Source: a plasmid
Sequence record: CP147646.1
Length of the DNA: 64,000 nucleotides
Strand: one strand, 5' to 3'
Both the position numbers and the translations under genes were made by a program. A model generated the notes under the pieces. The model was not told the DNA's origin. It did no database searches and was given only the letters and a program-made list of their open reading frames with translations. The number at the start of each line of letters is the position of its first letter. Positions within the stretch are counted from its first letter, which is position 1. Shown piece by piece: positions 23,178-45,667 of the stretch.

Positions 23178-23265
23178 CGGAGAATAAGGGATTCGAACCC
23201 TTGCGCCAGTTACCCGACCTAACGATTTAGCAAACCGTCCTCTTCAGCCTCTTGAGTAATTCTCC
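23178..23265 (-). tRNA. tRNA-Ser(GCT)
   Basis: Hand-folded cloverleaf: acceptor GGAGAAT, long variable arm, anticodon loop TTGCTAA. No encoded CCA. Confidence 0.75.
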
Positions 23266-23278
23266 AAATTAATATTAA

Positions 23279-23352
<74 letters not shown>

Positions 23353-23386
23353 AAGCAAATGCTTGGTTTTACTTTTATGTAAAGTA

Positions 23387-23457
23387 AGCGGGTGACGAGA
23401 ATCGAACTCGCGACAACAGCTTGGAAGGCTGTAGTTTTACCACTAAACTACACCCGC
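23387..23457 (-). tRNA. tRNA-Gly(TCC)
   Basis: GCGGGTGTAGTTTAGTGG...CTTCCAA... cloverleaf with anticodon TCC. Confidence 0.75.
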
Positions 23458-23476
23458 TAAAAACTTATATAATAAA

Positions 23477-23549
23477 TGGCGCGAGACGGAATCGAACCGC
23501 CGACACATGGAGCTTCAATCCATTGCTCTACCAACTGAGCTACCGAGCC
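23477..23549 (-). tRNA. tRNA-Phe(GAA)
   Basis: GGCTCGGTAGCTCAGTTGG...TTGAAGC... cloverleaf with anticodon GAA. Confidence 0.7.
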
Positions 23550-23551
23550 TA

Positions 23552-23625
<74 letters not shown>

Positions 23626-23635
23626 ATATCTTTAA

Positions 23636-23725
23636 AGGAGGATGTGGGATTCGAACCCACGCACGCTTTTACACGCCTGACGGTTTTCAAGACCGTTCCC
23701 TTCAGCCGGACTTGGGTAATCCTCC
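23636..23725 (-). tRNA. tRNA-Ser(TGA)
   Basis: GGAGGATTACCCAAG... with a long variable arm and anticodon loop CTTGAAA. Confidence 0.7.
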
Positions 23726-23740
23726 ATATAACAAAAAATA

Positions 23741-23814
23741 TGGACCTTGTAGGACTCGAACCTACGACCGCTCGGTTATGAGCCGAGTGCTCTAACCAGT
23801 TGAGCTAAAGGTCC
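23741..23814 (-). tRNA. tRNA with CAT anticodon of the Ile2 (lysidine) type, likely to be annotated as Met by default
   Basis: GGACCTTTAGCTCA...CTCATAA...GGTCGTAGGTTCGAGTCCTACAAGGTCCA closely resembles the Bacillus tRNA-Ile(CAU) body rather than elongator Met. Confidence 0.55.
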
Positions 23815-23833
23815 AAAGTCTCAATAAAATAAA

Positions 23834-23907
23834 TAGCGGCGGAGGGGATCGAACCCCCGACCTCCCGGGTATGAACCGGACGCTCTAGCCAGCTGAGCTA
23901 CACCGCC
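23834..23907 (-). tRNA. Elongator tRNA-Met(CAT)
   Basis: GGCGGTGTAGCTCAGCTGGCTAGAGCG...TTCATAC...GGGGGTTCGATCC, a classic Firmicutes elongator Met body. Confidence 0.7.
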
Positions 23908-23922
23908 ATAAAAATATATCCA

Positions 23923-23996
23923 TCGGGAAGACAGGATTCGAACCTGCGACACCTTGGTCCCAAACCAAGTACTCTACCAAGCTGAGCTACTTCCCG
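23923..23996 (-). tRNA. tRNA-Pro(TGG)
   Basis: CGGGAAGTAGCTCAGCTTGG...TTTGGGA... with anticodon TGG. Confidence 0.75.
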
Positions 23997-24003
23997 AAAA
24001 ATA

Positions 24004-24077
24004 TGCACCCTAGAGGAGTCGAACCTCTAACCGCCTGATTCGTAGTCAGGTACTCTATCCAGTTGAGCTAAGGGTGC
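24004..24077 (-). tRNA. tRNA-Arg(ACG)
   Basis: GCACCCTTAGCTCAACTGGATAGAG...CTACGAA... with anticodon ACG. Confidence 0.75.
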
Positions 24078-24088
24078 TAAATATTATA

Positions 24089-24173
24089 TGCCGAGGACCG
24101 GAATCGAACCGGTACGATGTTTACCATCGCAGGATTTTAAGTCCTGTGCGTCTGCCAGTTCCGCCACCCCGGC
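24089..24173 (-). tRNA. tRNA-Leu(TAA)
   Basis: GCCGGGGTGGCGGAACTGGCAGAC...CTTAAAA... with a long variable arm. Confidence 0.75.
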
Positions 24174-24181
24174 CTCTAACA

Positions 24182-24253
24182 AGCGAACGACGGGGTTCGA
24201 ACCCGCGACCCTCACCTTGGCAAGGTGATGTTCTACCACTGAACTACGTTCGC
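24182..24253 (-). tRNA. tRNA-Gly(GCC)
   Basis: GCGAACGTAGTTCAGTGGTAGAAC...TTGCCAA... with anticodon GCC. Confidence 0.75.
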
Positions 24254-24286
24254 ACTAAAGACACTATTTATCCTATAAAATTGTAA

Positions 24287-24359
24287 TGCCGGCTACATGA
24301 CTTGAACACGCGACCCTCTGATTACAAATCAGATGCTCTACCAACTGAGCTAAGCCGGC
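24287..24359 (-). tRNA. tRNA-Thr(TGT)
   Basis: GCCGGCTTAGCTCAGTTGGTAGAGC...TTTGTAA... with anticodon TGT. Confidence 0.75.
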
Positions 24360-24369
24360 AATCTACTAA

Positions 24370-24451
24370 TGCGGGTGAAGGGACTTGAACCCCCACGCCG
24401 TTAAGCGCCAGATCCTAAATCTGGTGCGTCTGCCAATTCCGCCATCCCCGC
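24370..24451 (-). tRNA. tRNA-Leu(TAG)
   Basis: GCGGGGATGGCGGAATTGGCAGAC...TTTAGGA... with a long variable arm. First gene of the tRNA operon. Confidence 0.75.
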
Positions 24452-41645: not shown

Positions 41646-41838
41646 ACTGACACCTCACAAGCATTTTATTATATTATAACAAAAAAGAACCTTAATATGG
41701 TATCATTTGCTATCATTGCCCAATCACTTGATAAATCAACATTTTACAACCTTACATTATCTGGTCAATTACACTGATTTTAAAAACAACGTAGTAAATA
41801 ACGTAGTAATTTTTGCGCTGGGGAGCATCTGATTTTTG

Positions 41839-41859
41839 GACTTGGAAAAGTCTTTTTTT
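41839..41859 (+). terminator. Plus-strand Rho-independent terminator with no annotated plus-strand gene upstream
   Basis: GACTT-GGAA-AAGTC hairpin immediately followed by T7 on the plus strand. In the minus orientation the hairpin is not followed by a U-run. Confidence 0.4.
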
Positions 41860-42040
41860 ATTTATCTAATTCCATCAACACTTCTTCCACTTTTTCCTCT
41901 GTCGCAACTTCCCACAATCTTACAGGCTCACCAGGTAACACATAATCAAATATCTTTCCGTTCTTACGCACAACCATCACTGTATCACTGCTGATATATC
42001 CTTTTTCAATCGCTTCTTTAAACTCATCTATATATAACAT
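41858..42040 (-). CDS. Small conserved hypothetical protein, 60 aa
   Basis: ATG start with a strong GGAGG RBS and a TTGTCT-17-TAAAAT promoter upstream. No recognizable domain. Confidence 0.55.
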   Translation of the reverse strand: MLYIDEFKEAIEKGYISSDTVMVVRKNGKIFDYVLPGEPVRLWEVATEEKVEEVLMELDK

Positions 42041-42144
42041 ATTTTATCCTCCTACTTATCTATTCGATAAAAAATCCCCAAAATAGACAATTTTAAATTT
42101 TTCTGTTCTGATAGACAAAAAGATAAATATTTTAAAAAAAAGTA

Positions 42145-42173
42145 TTGACTTTATATAGTACATGTATTATAAT
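42145..42173 (+). promoter_or_regulatory. Strong sigma-A promoter for the 41-aa peptide gene
   Basis: TTGACT, a 17-nt spacer, then TATAAT, followed by AAAGGAGG 6 nt before the ATG. Confidence 0.55.
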
Positions 42174-42196
42174 TAATATATAGAAAGGAGGAAGAT

Positions 42197-42322
42197 ATGA
42201 GGATATCAGAAATTGCTGATTTGCTTACTTCAATCGGAACTCTGTTGGTTGGTATAGCAAGCATAATCACAGCAATAAAAAAAGAACCTAAAAAGAAAAA
42301 CCGGCCACGGAGATTCAAATAA
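42197..42322 (+). CDS. 41-aa hydrophobic/basic peptide, candidate type I toxin (Fst/Ldr-like)
   Basis: Unlisted ORF (41 codons): MRISEIADLLTSIGTLLVGIASIITAIKKEPKKKNRPRRFK. A single 19-aa TM helix plus a Lys/Arg tail, consensus promoter and RBS, and a stem-loop (GGGGCTCAAGCCCC within an AGTAGT/ACTACT outer stem) right after the stop. Confidence 0.45.
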   Translation: MRISEIADLLTSIGTLLVGIASIITAIKKEPKKKNRPRRFK

Positions 42323-42457
42323 GGTTCTAGTAGTAGTTTGGGGCTCAAGCCCCTTGCCACTACTGATAGTATATCATATCTAAGACAAATATGAAATATT
42401 TGATTATTTTCGCAATTTGTTTAGTTGTATTTTACTTTATTAACAAGGATGATTGAA

Positions 42458-42628
42458 ATGGATAAAGAATTAACACCTCAAGAAAAAGCAAATAAAAAGT
42501 GGGCAGAAAACAATAGAGAACATAGAACCTATCTATCAAAACGATCTACTGCTCGTAGTTTTATTAACAAAAATGCTACAAAAGAAGACTTATTAGAATT
42601 AAAACAATTAATTGAAAGCAAACTCTAG
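42458..42628 (+). CDS. Small basic helical protein, 56 aa, function unknown
   Basis: ATG with an AAGGA RBS 9 nt upstream, translating MDKELTPQEKANKKWAENNREHRTYLSKRST.... Followed by a bidirectional terminator. Confidence 0.4.
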   Translation: MDKELTPQEKANKKWAENNREHRTYLSKRSTARSFINKNATKEDLLELKQLIESKL

Positions 42629-42639
42629 ACACACAAAAA

Positions 42640-42663
42640 AACCGCCCTCAATAGAGAGCGGTT
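42640..42663. terminator. Bidirectional Rho-independent terminator between the 56-aa ORF (plus) and csbD (minus)
   Basis: AACCGC, a 12-nt loop, then GCGGTT, flanked by an A-run on one side and a T-rich run on the other. Confidence 0.5.
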
Positions 42664-42668
42664 AATAT

Positions 42669-42869
42669 TTATTTCAGTTTTTCTTTGACAGCATCTACTG
42701 CCTCTTCAACAGCATCTTTAGCATCATCTGCTAGTTCTTTGCCTTTAGCAATTGTTTTTTCAACAAATCCTTTTGCTTCTAACTCTTTATCACCGGTTAT
42801 TTTGCCAAAGCCTTCTTTAGCACCACCTTTTGCTTGATCTAATTTTGATTTTAGTTTTTCTTGTGACAT
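42669..42869 (-). CDS. csbD: CsbD-family general stress protein
   Basis: 66-aa ORF with the KxKGxxKExxGKxTGD...EAKG motif typical of CsbD. Strong GGAGG RBS. Confidence 0.75.
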
Positions 42870-42978: not shown

Positions 42979-43278
42979 CTATACTGTAATCTGCCTACTT
43001 ATTTCAAAACTAAATCGTTGTTTTATTAAATCATTTATTTGTTTTGTTGAATTTACAATTTTTAGTTGACTTTTAATATGATTAAAATCATAGTAAGACA
43101 ATAAATTGATAAAAGCAGAGTTTACAAAGGACGAACTTACTTCGCTAATTCCTGCGAACGAAACAGTCACGACTGTATCTGTATAAAAATAAGATTTCAA
43201 TTGTTCAAATAAAATCTCTCCCGCCTTATTATCGTTAGAAAAATTCTTTGCTAGTTCTTTGACAGTTAACGTTACCAT
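42979..43278 (-). CDS. Small STAS-like protein (DUF4325-type, anti-sigma-antagonist-like), second gene of a two-gene accessory module
   Basis: 99-aa ORF. The block TVVTVSFAGISEVSSSFVNSAFINLL resembles STAS/DUF4325 cores. Its ATG overlaps the TGG-TAA end of the upstream gene (ATGGTAA), indicating translational coupling. Confidence 0.55.
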   Translation of the reverse strand: MVTLTVKELAKNFSNDNKAGEILFEQLKSYFYTDTVVTVSFAGISEVSSSFVNSAFINLLSYYDFNHIKSQLKIVNSTKQINDLIKQRFSFEISRQITV

Positions 43279-44168
43279 TCGAATTCTTCCTCCTCTTCTA
43301 AATCATATAAATTGTCATTCGATACATCTATTCGAATTTCAAAAAAAGTACCAGGATATGATTCCTCAGACGAATAACTTTGAGTAATTTTATTATCTGA
43401 TACCGAGACTATACCACAATTAGATATAATTGTAAAGTTCCCGACTTTGTTAGTAGTTAAAGTATTTACAATATTAGAAAGCCCTGCCCCTCTATTTTGA
43501 GGTATAGTTTCTGCAGAAACACCCTCTTGAAGAGCGAATTCTATTAACTTGTTGTCAGGCTCATCCTTTTTAAATTTTCGCTTTATAGACTGAGGGATTC
43601 CTATTCCGAAATCAGATACTGCTATTACAATCTCCTTGTTCTTGGGATAGTATTGCCCAAAAATACATCCCTTAGATTCCTTAGAATGATCTGCAATATT
43701 ATTAAAAATTTCGTCAACCGCTACACAAATAGAACTAAACTCATTTGTTCTGCCAGTTTGCTTTTGTAACCAATTCTTAAAGTCTGTTACCTTCCATTGA
43801 GCTATTTGTTCAGTGTTAATAAATTTAATTTCAAAAGTAGTCGGGCGCAGTTCCGGCTCTTTATAAACCAATTTATCAAACACTTTAAAAAAGCCACAAT
43901 CTACTAGATACAACATAGCTTGCCTTTGACGTTTATTTAAAGAGCTTTCTTCGCATATTAACCACTTGATGTTTGCATCTTTTCTTTTTGTAGCAAAAGT
44001 TAACATATTATATAACGAAATTACTCCACTAGGTTCCGCAAACTCAATGTTTCTCATATCTACTGTAAGTGTCCTGTTATCACTTAAAGCAAGTAATCTA
44101 TTGAAATTGGTAACGATTTTCGTAATGTTATATTTGTTTAAATTCTGAGGAAGAACTAGATTATTCAT
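43272..44168 (-). CDS. GHKL / HATPase_c ATP-binding protein (RsbW/SpoIIAB-like kinase fold) with a weakly STAS-like N-terminal half and a DLEEEEEFEW C-terminus
   Basis: N-box EIFNNIADH, G1 box DFGIGIP and G2 box RGAGLSNIV are all present. The track ORF starts at a TTG; an ATG 9 nt downstream (MNNLVLP...) is the likely start. Own promoter directly after the lysin terminator. Confidence 0.6.
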   Translation of the reverse strand: MNNLVLPQNLNKYNITKIVTNFNRLLALSDNRTLTVDMRNIEFAEPSGVISLYNMLTFATKRKDANIKWLICEESSLNKRQRQAMLYLVDCGFFKVFDKLVYKEPELRPTTFEIKFINTEQIAQWKVTDFKNWLQKQTGRTNEFSSICVAVDEIFNNIADHSKESKGCIFGQYYPKNKEIVIAVSDFGIGIPQSIKRKFKKDEPDNKLIEFALQEGVSAETIPQNRGAGLSNIVNTLTTNKVGNFTIISNCGIVSVSDNKITQSYSSEESYPGTFFEIRIDVSNDNLYDLEEEEEFEW

Positions 44169-44199
44169 TGATAACAACTTTCTTTATAATAGCGAAACT

Positions 44200-44332: not shown

Positions 44333-45667
44333 TTACATATCTGTTGCATCAATTAAGTAAGCATCTTCTACCCATTGTTCGGATTGCGGTGCATTAATAC
44401 GTGACCAACCGTTTATTTTTTCGTACACTCTCACACGAGTACCCGCTTTGATAAACTCTTTATCGGTGCTACTTGCGTTTGGTTTAGATTCTACGTAATA
44501 ATCTGTGCTTAGAGTCGCTTCGTAGTACGGCGTATTTGAGTTATCTAGCTTAGTATTAACATCTAAACGCTGATTAAAGCTAACTGCTTCTTGCGGTTTA
44601 TCTGCTTTTGGTACAGTCACTTGGCTATTGTCGTCAGCTAATAAAACGACATTTTTATCTAGTCCCCCAGCGACTCCGACGCTTGTAAATTGCCACCAGC
44701 GCACGCCGTCCATTGATGGGAAATAGTCCCAAAGTGGGTCTTTTCGTACTTCGTAGTCTGGATAACCAGCTATCCAAATGCTGTTTGGGTACTTAGCGAT
44801 AATTTGCTGATAATCAATATTATTAAGCGTAAATGGCTTATAGCTGTAGTAAACAGGCTTGTAACCAGCGCTAGCGATTTTATCCATAAATGCAATAACT
44901 GCGTTTGTGTTAGCTTGCTTGTCTGCGCTTGCGGAATCTTCATAGTCAATGACTAAGTATGATACTTTTTTGCTTGGTAAGTTAGACAAAAATAAGTCTG
45001 CTTCCCGTTGCGCTAAAGCACTATCACCGCCAAAACGTCCAAAGTGGTAATAGCCAATTGGGTCGCTTGTGTTTGCTTGTTGTTGATGCCTATCAGACAG
45101 CCAAGCGAGCGACTCAGATACTTTGATAATCGTTTTAGTAGTGCCAGCTTGCTGACAAGTAGTGGTTAAGTCTGCTTGTTGATAAGCTGATACATCAATA
45201 AAATAATCGCCTTTATTTAGTCCTATATTACCTGTAACAGTAACTGCATTTTTAAAAACTTTTGGCCTAAAGGCAGTTGGGTATGTTGCGGAGTATGGGA
45301 TTTTTACAATATTGTATGCGCCATTAGCACCGCCTTGATTTTGCCCCAAAAACCAGCCATATCCGCCTCCTGCATCGCTGTCAAAAATTGCTACATGACT
45401 GTAAGGCGTTACACCGTCAACAACCATAAAAATAGCAACATCACCAGCTTGCATAACTTCCACTTCATCAAAATAGTTTAAGATACCATTTTCGTGACGT
45501 TGCTCCCATATATCCCTTGCGTATCCTGTATTTGTACAGTTTGCGTATGGCAGTCCTAGATACTTACAGTAATCTGCGTAGCCATCCCAACATTGTGCAC
45601 CGAAAGACCCATCAATATCATAAGCGTTACCATTTGACCTGCTTTTATATTCTTGATAAGTTGCCAT
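44333..45667 (-). CDS. Phage endolysin with CHAP endopeptidase, GH25 muramidase and a C-terminal SH3b-like wall-binding domain (B30/PlyGBS type)
   Basis: 444-aa ORF with an N-terminal CHAP Cys/His (QCWDGYADY...SHVAIF), a central GH25 region (FIDVSAYQ...) and a C-terminal SH3-like domain. Confidence 0.85.
   Translation of the reverse strand: MATYQEYKSRSNGNAYDIDGSFGAQCWDGYADYCKYLGLPYANCTNTGYARDIWEQRHENGILNYFDEVEVMQAGDVAIFMVVDGVTPYSHVAIFDSDAGGGYGWFLGQNQGGANGAYNIVKIPYSATYPTAFRPKVFKNAVTVTGNIGLNKGDYFIDVSAYQQADLTTTCQQAGTTKTIIKVSESLAWLSDRHQQQANTSDPIGYYHFGRFGGDSALAQREADLFLSNLPSKKVSYLVIDYEDSASADKQANTNAVIAFMDKIASAGYKPVYYSYKPFTLNNIDYQQIIAKYPNSIWIAGYPDYEVRKDPLWDYFPSMDGVRWWQFTSVGVAGGLDKNVVLLADDNSQVTVPKADKPQEAVSFNQRLDVNTKLDNSNTPYYEATLSTDYYVESKPNASSTDKEFIKAGTRVRVYEKINGWSRINAPQSEQWVEDAYLIDATDM

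Follow-up and report, generated by a model that had tools for sequence, protein, structure and literature searches.

The window analysed here is the whole 64,000-nt stretch of record CP147646.1, and covers the terminal part of a prophage of Streptococcus agalactiae (group B streptococcus, GBS). We read a locus at the paratox end of this prophage, with moderate confidence, as a type I toxin-antitoxin-like sense/antisense cassette that forms the front of an operon autoregulated by Aca13, an anti-CRISPR-associated (Aca) protein. The first open reading frame (ORF) of the operon, ORF1, codes for a 41-aa peptide with a hydrophobic helix and a basic tail; a predicted antisense RNA gene converges on its 3′ end, and two further genes follow, ORF2, coding for a short hydrophobic peptide, and ORF3, coding for an Aca13 homologue. 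The first-pass annotation had described the 41-aa ORF with its TTGACT-17-TATAAT promoter, its ribosome binding site and a 3′ stem-loop, all of which we found where it had placed them; it had included neither the prophage end nor the operon context, with the Aca13 homologue and the operator in the promoter. The elements of the sense/antisense pair are the following:

42145-42173, plus strand: sense promoter, with TTGACT (42145-42150), a 17-nt spacer and TATAAT (42168-42173); the predicted transcription start site is near 42180.
42184-42191, plus strand: Shine-Dalgarno (SD) sequence of ORF1, AAAGGAGG, 5 nt before the ATG; read from the sequence and predicted to be unpaired in mRNA folds.
42197-42322, plus strand: ORF1, 41 aa, MRISEIADLLTSIGTLLVGIASIITAIKKEPKKKNRPRRFK; from the ORF list and its translation.
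42277-42283, no strand assigned: run of seven A in Lys codons of ORF1, a frameshift hotspot, whose minus strand supplies the U-tract for the predicted terminator of the antisense RNA.
42283-42328, minus strand: SL2, the predicted antisense terminator hairpin, with arms at 42322-42328 and 42283-42289 (AGAACCU/AGGUUCU) followed by U7; from folds and covariation.
42329-42364, no strand assigned: SL1, the stem-loop GGGGC-TCAA-GCCCC within an AGTAGT/ACTACT outer stem, right after the ORF1 stop codon.
42275-42361, minus strand: predicted cis-antisense small RNA (sRNA) of ~87 nt, from 42361 to ~42275, with an alternative 3′ end near 42293; from the promoter and folds.
42368-42395, minus strand: antisense promoter, with −35 TTCATA (42390-42395), a 16-nt spacer and extended −10 TGATATACT (42368-42376); from the promoter scan.
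42374-42381, plus strand: UCAUAUCU, predicted long-range partner of the ORF1 start-codon region AGAUAUGA (42193-42200); from mRNA folds.

The membrane peptide and the predicted antisense RNA

Conservation was examined in streptococcal copies of the locus taken from genomes and IMG/VR (59 copies, 39 of them distinct). The sense promoter, which with 11 of 12 matches was the top site of the region in the promoter scan, keeps its −35 and −10 hexamers in the 39 distinct copies, the spacer being swapped between clades. ORF1 is intact in 36 of the 39 and varies in length by an in-frame change, from 41 aa in GBS to 43 aa in oral streptococci. The ratio of nonsynonymous to synonymous differences per site (pN/pS) was 0.22-0.24 between GBS and the oral streptococci and 0.06-0.08 inside the oral clade, with synonymous sites near saturation between clades (pS ~0.8, pN ~0.18). 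ORF1 is a selected gene, under purifying selection.

The hydrophobic helix of the deduced peptide spans approximately residues 6-27, contains the invariant glycines G14 and G19, reaches a Kyte-Doolittle maximum of 2.04 (17-residue span, residues 9-25) and is followed by a C-terminal tail with a net charge of +8. The peptide thus has the general character of type I toxins, being a hydrophobic, membrane-directed product of fewer than 60 aa encoded by the sense RNA. The GBS peptide matches the PHROG family phrog_3399, of unknown function, at E 4.8e-20, and its oral-clade counterpart does so at E 9.4e-10. Distant relatives, found in an exhaustive representative search (seven matches), keep G14, G19 and the basic tail, and most end in KFK; the KKEP...RKFK tail and both glycines are retained down to ~45% identity. 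A word-indexed protein search returned only four GBS entries, because small ORFs are seldom called: ORF1 is annotated as a hypothetical protein in one record and is uncalled in most. An earlier assignment of the peptide to the Fst/Ldr/TxpA type was borne out as to its one-helix, basic-tail build, but not as to family membership. A search for curated type I toxin families gave no match for ORF1 or six relatives in Pfam and NCBIfam at E up to 10, and searches of PDB gave no match to Fst, Ldr, TxpA or Hol-Tox. Similarity to any solved anti-CRISPR protein (Acr) was likewise absent from the structure database search, PADLOC returned nothing for ORF1 or ORF3, and the peptide sequences were not found in any paper by full-text search.

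Inactivated copies of ORF1 occur in nature. The A7 run is shifted in three copies (L048, L049 and P0004), the −1 variant leading to a 61-aa product (L048, P0004) and the +1 variant to a 31-aa product (L049); these frameshifts could reflect either phase-variable inactivation or sequencing error. Additionally, in five Listeria contigs from IMG/VR (L102-L106) the promoter and first ~6 codons of the corresponding ORF are replaced by unrelated sequence, and these 'orphan antisense' versions retain ORF2, the Aca13 homologue and the part encoding rli48, the Listeria counterpart of the antisense RNA discussed below. The inactivating variants, that is, the L048 and L049 frameshifts and the losses of promoter and start in Listeria, fit with a potentially costly ORF1 product.

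Downstream of ORF1, a promoter on the minus strand faces the gene. The first-pass annotation had suggested a convergent −10, TATGAT, at 42364-42369; a convergent promoter is indeed predicted, but its −10 is TATACT at 42368-42373; a TG extension accompanies this −10 at 42375-42376, and the −35 overlaps the ATG of ORF2. The TG extension, the −10 and the −35 are invariant across the GBS and oral clades, and the spacer varies without indels; at both promoters the flanking sequence varies as well. The antisense elements recur in seven lineages, and are present in four further loci (L110, L112, L113 and L115) and in those of Listeria, Clostridium tetani and the Bacillus subtilis prophage SPbeta.

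Transcription from this promoter would pass SL1, which would be the 5′ hairpin of the antisense RNA as well as the 3′-untranslated region (UTR) hairpin of the mRNA, and whose stem varies among relatives (GGGAGC/GCUCCC, GGGGG/CCCCC). As had been proposed, SL1 is not a plain terminator in either direction: there is no T-run after it on either strand, and it was not flagged by the terminator scan. SL2 is followed by a U-run on the minus strand only. In a set of seven lineages, four of them newly found through distant peptide relatives, 93.9% of the cells of the SL2 base helix were paired, with compensatory changes at two of the seven pairs (GC/CG/AU and AU/GC); the covariation score was reached by none of 500 shuffles, and slid controls scored much lower. 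One U-G pair of SL2 would become a C-A mismatch on the plus strand, and hence fits the minus strand only. Because a conserved convergent promoter is followed by a covarying terminator hairpin, a short cis-antisense RNA, covering the 3′ UTR of ORF1 and ~48 nt at the end of its coding sequence, is well predicted. Rfam searches of the whole window, and permissive ones of 41800-42700, gave only tRNAs and terminator-like noise, and no match to RatA or any other antitoxin family was found in the window.

The mRNA folds also contain, in every case, a 5′-3′ pairing between UCAUAUCU and AGAUAUGA, the latter at the start codon. In shuffle tests, p for this pairing was ~0.003-0.01 for the streptococci, 0.006-0.3 for Listeria and 0.25-0.34 for C. 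tetani, so that we consider it no more than suggestive.

The Aca13 operon and its prophage setting

ORF1 is the first cistron and ORF3 the last of a three-gene operon, with no terminator between the genes. The remaining elements of the operon are:

42155-42170, no strand assigned: inverted repeat ATAGTACATGTATTAT, the predicted Aca13 operator, between the −35 and −10 of the sense promoter; the single such site in the window.
42391-42456, plus strand: ORF2, coding for a 21-aa hydrophobic peptide, MKYLIIFAICLVVFYFINKDD, without an SD and with its ATG inside the antisense −35.
42458-42628, plus strand: ORF3, coding for a 56-aa Aca13 homologue (phrog_2277) with three helices; from a PDB profile match.
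42640-42663, no strand assigned: terminator hairpin common to the operon and a convergent CsbD-like gene, the likely 3′ end of the ORF1-ORF2-aca13 mRNA.

ORF3 aligned with residues 90-140 of AcrIIA32 (PDB 8ye6_B) with E 2.4e-17 as a single sequence and 2.9e-25 as a profile, and is closely homologous to that protein's C-terminal Aca13 domain. Three of the four residues with which Aca13 contacts DNA are kept (W99, R107 and S111, corresponding to W15, R23 and S27 of ORF3), and the fourth, K92, is replaced by Q8; an AlphaFold2 model of ORF3 consists of three helices (pLDDT 87.6). Aca13 represses acr-aca13 promoters through inverted repeats situated between the −35 and the −10 (PMC12282945, PMC8934645), and the repeat in the ORF1 promoter is placed as expected for such an operator. 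It also occurs, as ATAATACATGTACTAT, in two promoters flanking aca13 in the Streptococcus equinus phage Javan213, with unrelated cargo, and near-identical repeats accompany the ORF3 family in Listeria and C. tetani phages.

The peptide encoded by ORF2 (MKY...) is present in all streptococcal lineages, with its length kept at 21-23 aa and a pN/pS of 0.2-0.66; Pfam and NCBIfam gave nothing for ORF2 or ORF3. Only 1 nt separates the TGA of ORF2 (42454-42456) from the ATG of aca13 (42458), suggesting that translation of aca13 is coupled to that of the SD-less ORF2.

The third gene is not the same in all lineages. In the oral streptococcal cassettes it resembles the helix-turn-helix (HTH) N-terminal domain of AcrIIA15 (E 2.8e-7), and a different palindrome, TCACGGnATACCGTGA, occupies the operator position; we counted this joint change of regulator and palindrome in favour of the reading proposed here. 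Yet other regulators follow the cassette in further lineages, making at least three kinds of Aca-type regulator overall. Given these varied third genes and palindromes, ORF1, the predicted antisense gene and ORF2 constitute a mobile unit in the 'acr slot' of Aca-type operons. In a metagenomic relative (L112, 483-869), the cassette is followed by a gene for a protein of 128 aa, HTH-like at its N-terminus and acidic in its C-terminal half, possibly a fusion of Acr and Aca as in AcrIIA13-15.

Many S. agalactiae prophages, among them Javan5 (strain 2603V/R) and Javan7 (A909), match the region at 94-100% identity with their right ends. The 60-aa divergent neighbour of the operon, at 41858-42040 on the minus strand, is paratox (Pfam PF24313, E 1.5e-33). 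A well-formed promoter had been attributed to this gene; a divergent promoter is present, at 42118..42090, but as a sigma-70-like TTGTCT-17-TAAAAT with only 9 of 12 matches. Upstream of paratox, on the minus strand within 42041-42118, there is also a T-rich tract followed by ATCGAATA, which is similar to the streptococcal SigX CIN-box, TACGAATA. Paratox is reported to be competence-induced in S. pyogenes, and the gene may be induced likewise here.

Phage structural and lysis genes occupy the minus strand of the window between ~64000 and the lysin gene at 44333-45667, which is the last of them. Between the lysin gene and the CsbD-like gene (42979-44177, minus strand) are situated genes for a 99-aa DUF4325 STAS-like protein and a 301-aa ATPase-like protein; Javan5 has an Abi gene in their place, so this appears to be a variable cargo or defence slot. 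PADLOC gave only a weak DrmA-like match there (E 4.9e-6). The replication region of Javan5 (L109, 10016-12011) contains a group II intron that carries a gene for a reverse transcriptase. A cluster of 14 tRNA genes is situated at 23178-24451 (minus strand), in the host part of the window.

Proposed mechanism, alternatives and significance

In the model that we favour, the strong sigma-A promoter would produce a single ORF1-ORF2-aca13 mRNA, and Aca13, the product of ORF3, would bind the inverted repeat between the −35 and the −10 and throttle the promoter. The convergent extended −10 promoter 3′ of ORF1 would drive the sRNA of ~87 nt, with SL1 followed by SL2 and U7, which would pair without mismatch with the final ~48 nt of ORF1 and with the 3′ UTR. 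By analogy with SR6 and yonT of SPbeta, the resulting duplex would be cleaved by RNase III, leading to decay of the ORF1 part of the mRNA, and the 5′-3′ pairing, which would bury the AUG, may also curb translation. The ORF1 peptide is expected to insert as a single helix with its N-terminus out and its C-terminus in, leaving the polybasic tail in the cytoplasm, and to disturb the membrane. We infer the GBS antisense transcript, the RNase III-dependent decay, the toxicity of the peptide and its biological role, be it prophage retention or action at the time of infection.

Several points weigh against this model. The Aca-controlled slot usually holds anti-defence genes (PMC12282945, PMC13551039), which would favour a role other than that of a toxin, and in sequence ORF1 resembles neither YonT nor any of the curated type I toxin families. 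Its peptide is not detectably homologous to those of Listeria (hhalign probability 3%), and the Rfam model of rli48 (RF01479) has no match in 41800-42700 even at E ≤ 10. The covariation of SL2 stems from few independent events, the 5′-3′ start-codon pairing is marginally significant in shuffle tests, and the predicted folds leave the SD of ORF1 open, in contrast to many type I toxin mRNAs.

The main rival is that ORF1, alone or together with ORF2, serves as an early effector under Aca control and is not toxic, being a membrane peptide for anti-defence or superinfection exclusion lodged in the 'acr slot', and that the antisense RNA merely uncouples ORF1 from aca13 expression in the lysogen. We consider this possible, though not probable. 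It agrees with the Aca13-like ORF3, with the operator in the promoter, with the unrelated cargo driven by the same operator in Javan213, and with the pairing of the cassette with at least three kinds of Aca-type regulator. Moreover, a gene driven by an acr-aca13 promoter is taken as an Acr candidate (PMC12282945), and other anti-defence functions have been located in Aca-regulated operons as well (PMC13551039). Two candidates under acr-aca13 promoters were inactive against three Cas9s (PMC12282945). However, known Acr proteins are soluble, whereas a 41-aa peptide with one helix and a +8 tail has the type I make-up of YonT; all the parts of a validated type I system are present, and inactivated copies exist in nature.

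A further reading, which we regard as rather unlikely, is that the cassette is an infection-time weapon governed by Aca and not an addiction module, giving an early burst of membrane peptide after DNA entry that is then shut off twice. The burst could come from the unrepressed promoter in the first minutes and be directed, for instance, against membrane defence, competing phages or DNA uptake, and in the double shut-off Aca13 could silence the promoter while the antisense RNA acts on the message. If so, anti-CRISPR-type regulation, a type I-like RNA switch and membrane peptides would be linked across phages of Streptococcus, Listeria and Clostridium, and Listeria rli48/rli98 would gain a function under this reading too.

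It is distinctly unlikely that ORF1 codes for an ordinary small membrane 'moron' protein free of RNA-level control, the convergent promoter being weak or silent in GBS. The GBS −10 is TATACT and not TATAAT, the −35 has only four of six matches, and no Rfam family was matched; against this, the TG extension, −10 and −35 are invariant around a variable spacer, the covarying hairpin with its U7 lies exactly downstream, and the Listeria equivalent is transcribed (PMC3105390). Still less credit is due to the idea that ORF1 and ORF2 are mainly leader or regulatory ORFs setting translation or transcription of aca13, with unimportant peptide products. The 1-nt distance between ORF2 and aca13, the missing SD of ORF2 and the tight control that Aca levels require (PMC13551039) speak for it, but the amino acids of ORF1 are strongly conserved over nearly saturated synonymous sites, and many aca13 genes have no such cassette upstream. 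Finally, the 69-aa minus-strand ORF at 42151-42360, already judged probably spurious in the first-pass annotation, is open in GBS and the oral-B clade, but its frame is broken in oral-A copies and in L068, it lacks an SD and it crosses the sense promoter, and with the substitution pattern suiting the plus frame and the phrog_3399 match of ORF1, it is scarcely conceivable that it is the real gene and ORF1 a chance frame.

If the type I model is correct, a widespread unannotated peptide family, phrog_3399 with its Listeria and Clostridium counterparts, would join the phage type I repertoire in important pathogens, and rli48 and rli98 of Listeria would acquire a role. Aca repressors, which serve as markers of anti-CRISPR loci, would also govern an RNA-controlled membrane peptide; for the discovery of Acr by 'guilt by association', this means that some candidates under acr-aca13 promoters may be toxins. 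The locus bears as well on the upkeep or the infection-time action of GBS prophages beside paratox. Because the antisense −10 lies between genes, the model is open to a clean test.

Comparison with known systems

The acr-aca13 operons of Streptococcus prophages (Song et al., PMC8934645, PMC12282945) and the GBS operon have in common a standalone Aca13 homologue as the last gene, an inverted repeat between the −35 and −10 of a strong promoter, and a position in the cargo region at the prophage end; both the homologue and the predicted operator at 42155-42170 are found here. They differ in that the upstream genes of GBS code for two tiny hydrophobic peptides and enclose a convergent promoter, while those of the acr-aca13 operons code for soluble Acr proteins, and in the Q that stands for K92 at the DNA interface of Aca13.

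With Fst/RNAII (par), TxpA/RatA and BsrG/SR4, the locus shares a small one-helix toxin or toxin candidate whose C-terminus is charged, together with a convergent antisense RNA, predicted in GBS, over the 3′ end. In contrast to these systems, it has no Pfam or NCBIfam family match and no Rfam match to RatA or another antitoxin, and it lacks the shared bidirectional terminator of the par type. Fozo et al. list a TxpA-like toxin for S. agalactiae 2603V/R, which might be ORF1; Javan5, the 2603V/R prophage that carries the module, has no RatA match. Matches to RatA and rli28 in GBS phages (PMC6064168) correspond to a different locus, absent from the window, and the paper on 12/111phiA concerns a type II RelB/YafQ system and is not relevant here.

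A region of Listeria phages shares 84% identity with the sense promoter and 5′ UTR. It continues with a 33-aa ORF with a helix and a basic tail, then a GC hairpin, the convergent TGTTATAAT, an ORF2 that is again hydrophobic and a homologue of ORF3, in this order. The module of A118-like Listeria phages and that of GBS thus agree in a near-identical promoter and operator, a small ORF with helix and basic tail, a convergent extended −10 and a gene of the Aca13 family, and a C. tetani phage contains a further version. At the locus of Listeria phage B025, the antisense strand is rli48 (Rfam RF01479, 171 bits), with the same design of SL1, a long hairpin and a U-run. In Listeria monocytogenes, rli48 and rli98 were detected as an antisense sRNA pair of an A118-like prophage (PMC4179725, PMC3105390), with rli98 as the sense partner and rli48 being an experimentally detected, transcribed sRNA (PMC3105390); both are catalogued as sRNAs, with no toxin-antitoxin role assigned in the accessible literature. 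The Listeria antisense hairpin is longer and extends over nearly the whole ORF, whereas that of GBS is shorter. Since no homology is detectable between the peptides and the rli48 model finds no match in the GBS antisense region, the link across genera rests on synteny, promoter sequence and architecture. The promoter and 5′ UTR (42115-42190) are also 76-84% identical to Listeria phage promoters and to one of B. subtilis phage phi105 (L006, 1463-1540), which precedes an unannotated HicA ORF and HicB and has a palindrome of its own, ACACGTATTATAATACGTGT, in the spacer. From these sequences, this looks like a common chassis, a 'strong promoter with operator in the spacer', serving different small modules.

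A par/Fst RNAII-like arrangement had been suggested for the antisense RNA, but the closest layout is that of yonT/SR6/yoyJ, a validated type I toxin-antitoxin system of SPbeta (PMC5848175; Fozo et al. 2010, PMC2887945) in which SR6 controls yonT (PMC5848175). ORF1 and YonT did not align by BLASTP at E ≤ 100, nor did YonU and Aca13 align. The peptides differ in size and charge (41 aa with a +8 tail for ORF1, 58 aa with a +17 tail for YonT), the predicted GBS antisense RNA ends before the start of ORF2 whereas SR6 covers the ribosome binding site of yoyJ, and the downstream gene is aca13, with an operator in the promoter, in GBS but the unrelated yonU in SPbeta; toxicity and RNase III dependence have been demonstrated for yonT only. 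Nevertheless, both loci are prophage-borne and have a sigma-A promoter, a strong SD, and a peptide whose N-terminal helix is followed by a polybasic tail. Directly after the stop codon comes a GC stem-loop, and just past it a convergent extended −10 (TGnTATAAT-like); the antisense RNA, predicted in GBS, is of ~90-100 nt, with a 5′ hairpin and a terminator hairpin in the tail codons, its U-tract being encoded by Lys codons. Another small hydrophobic ORF, whose translation signals are poor, begins 12-23 nt past the antisense −10, and the mRNA is polycistronic, without a terminator after the toxin ORF. Every part of the YonT/SR6 architecture (toxin, hairpin, convergent extended −10, hydrophobic ORF2 and terminator in the tail codons) hence has its equivalent at the GBS locus. 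Applied to SPbeta, our prediction rules gave an SR6 of 103 nt with an overlap of 63 nt, the published values being ~100 and ~65 (PMC5848175). By this analogy, the GBS cassette probably works like yonT/SR6, as a system of the same layout and not as a member of the YonT family.

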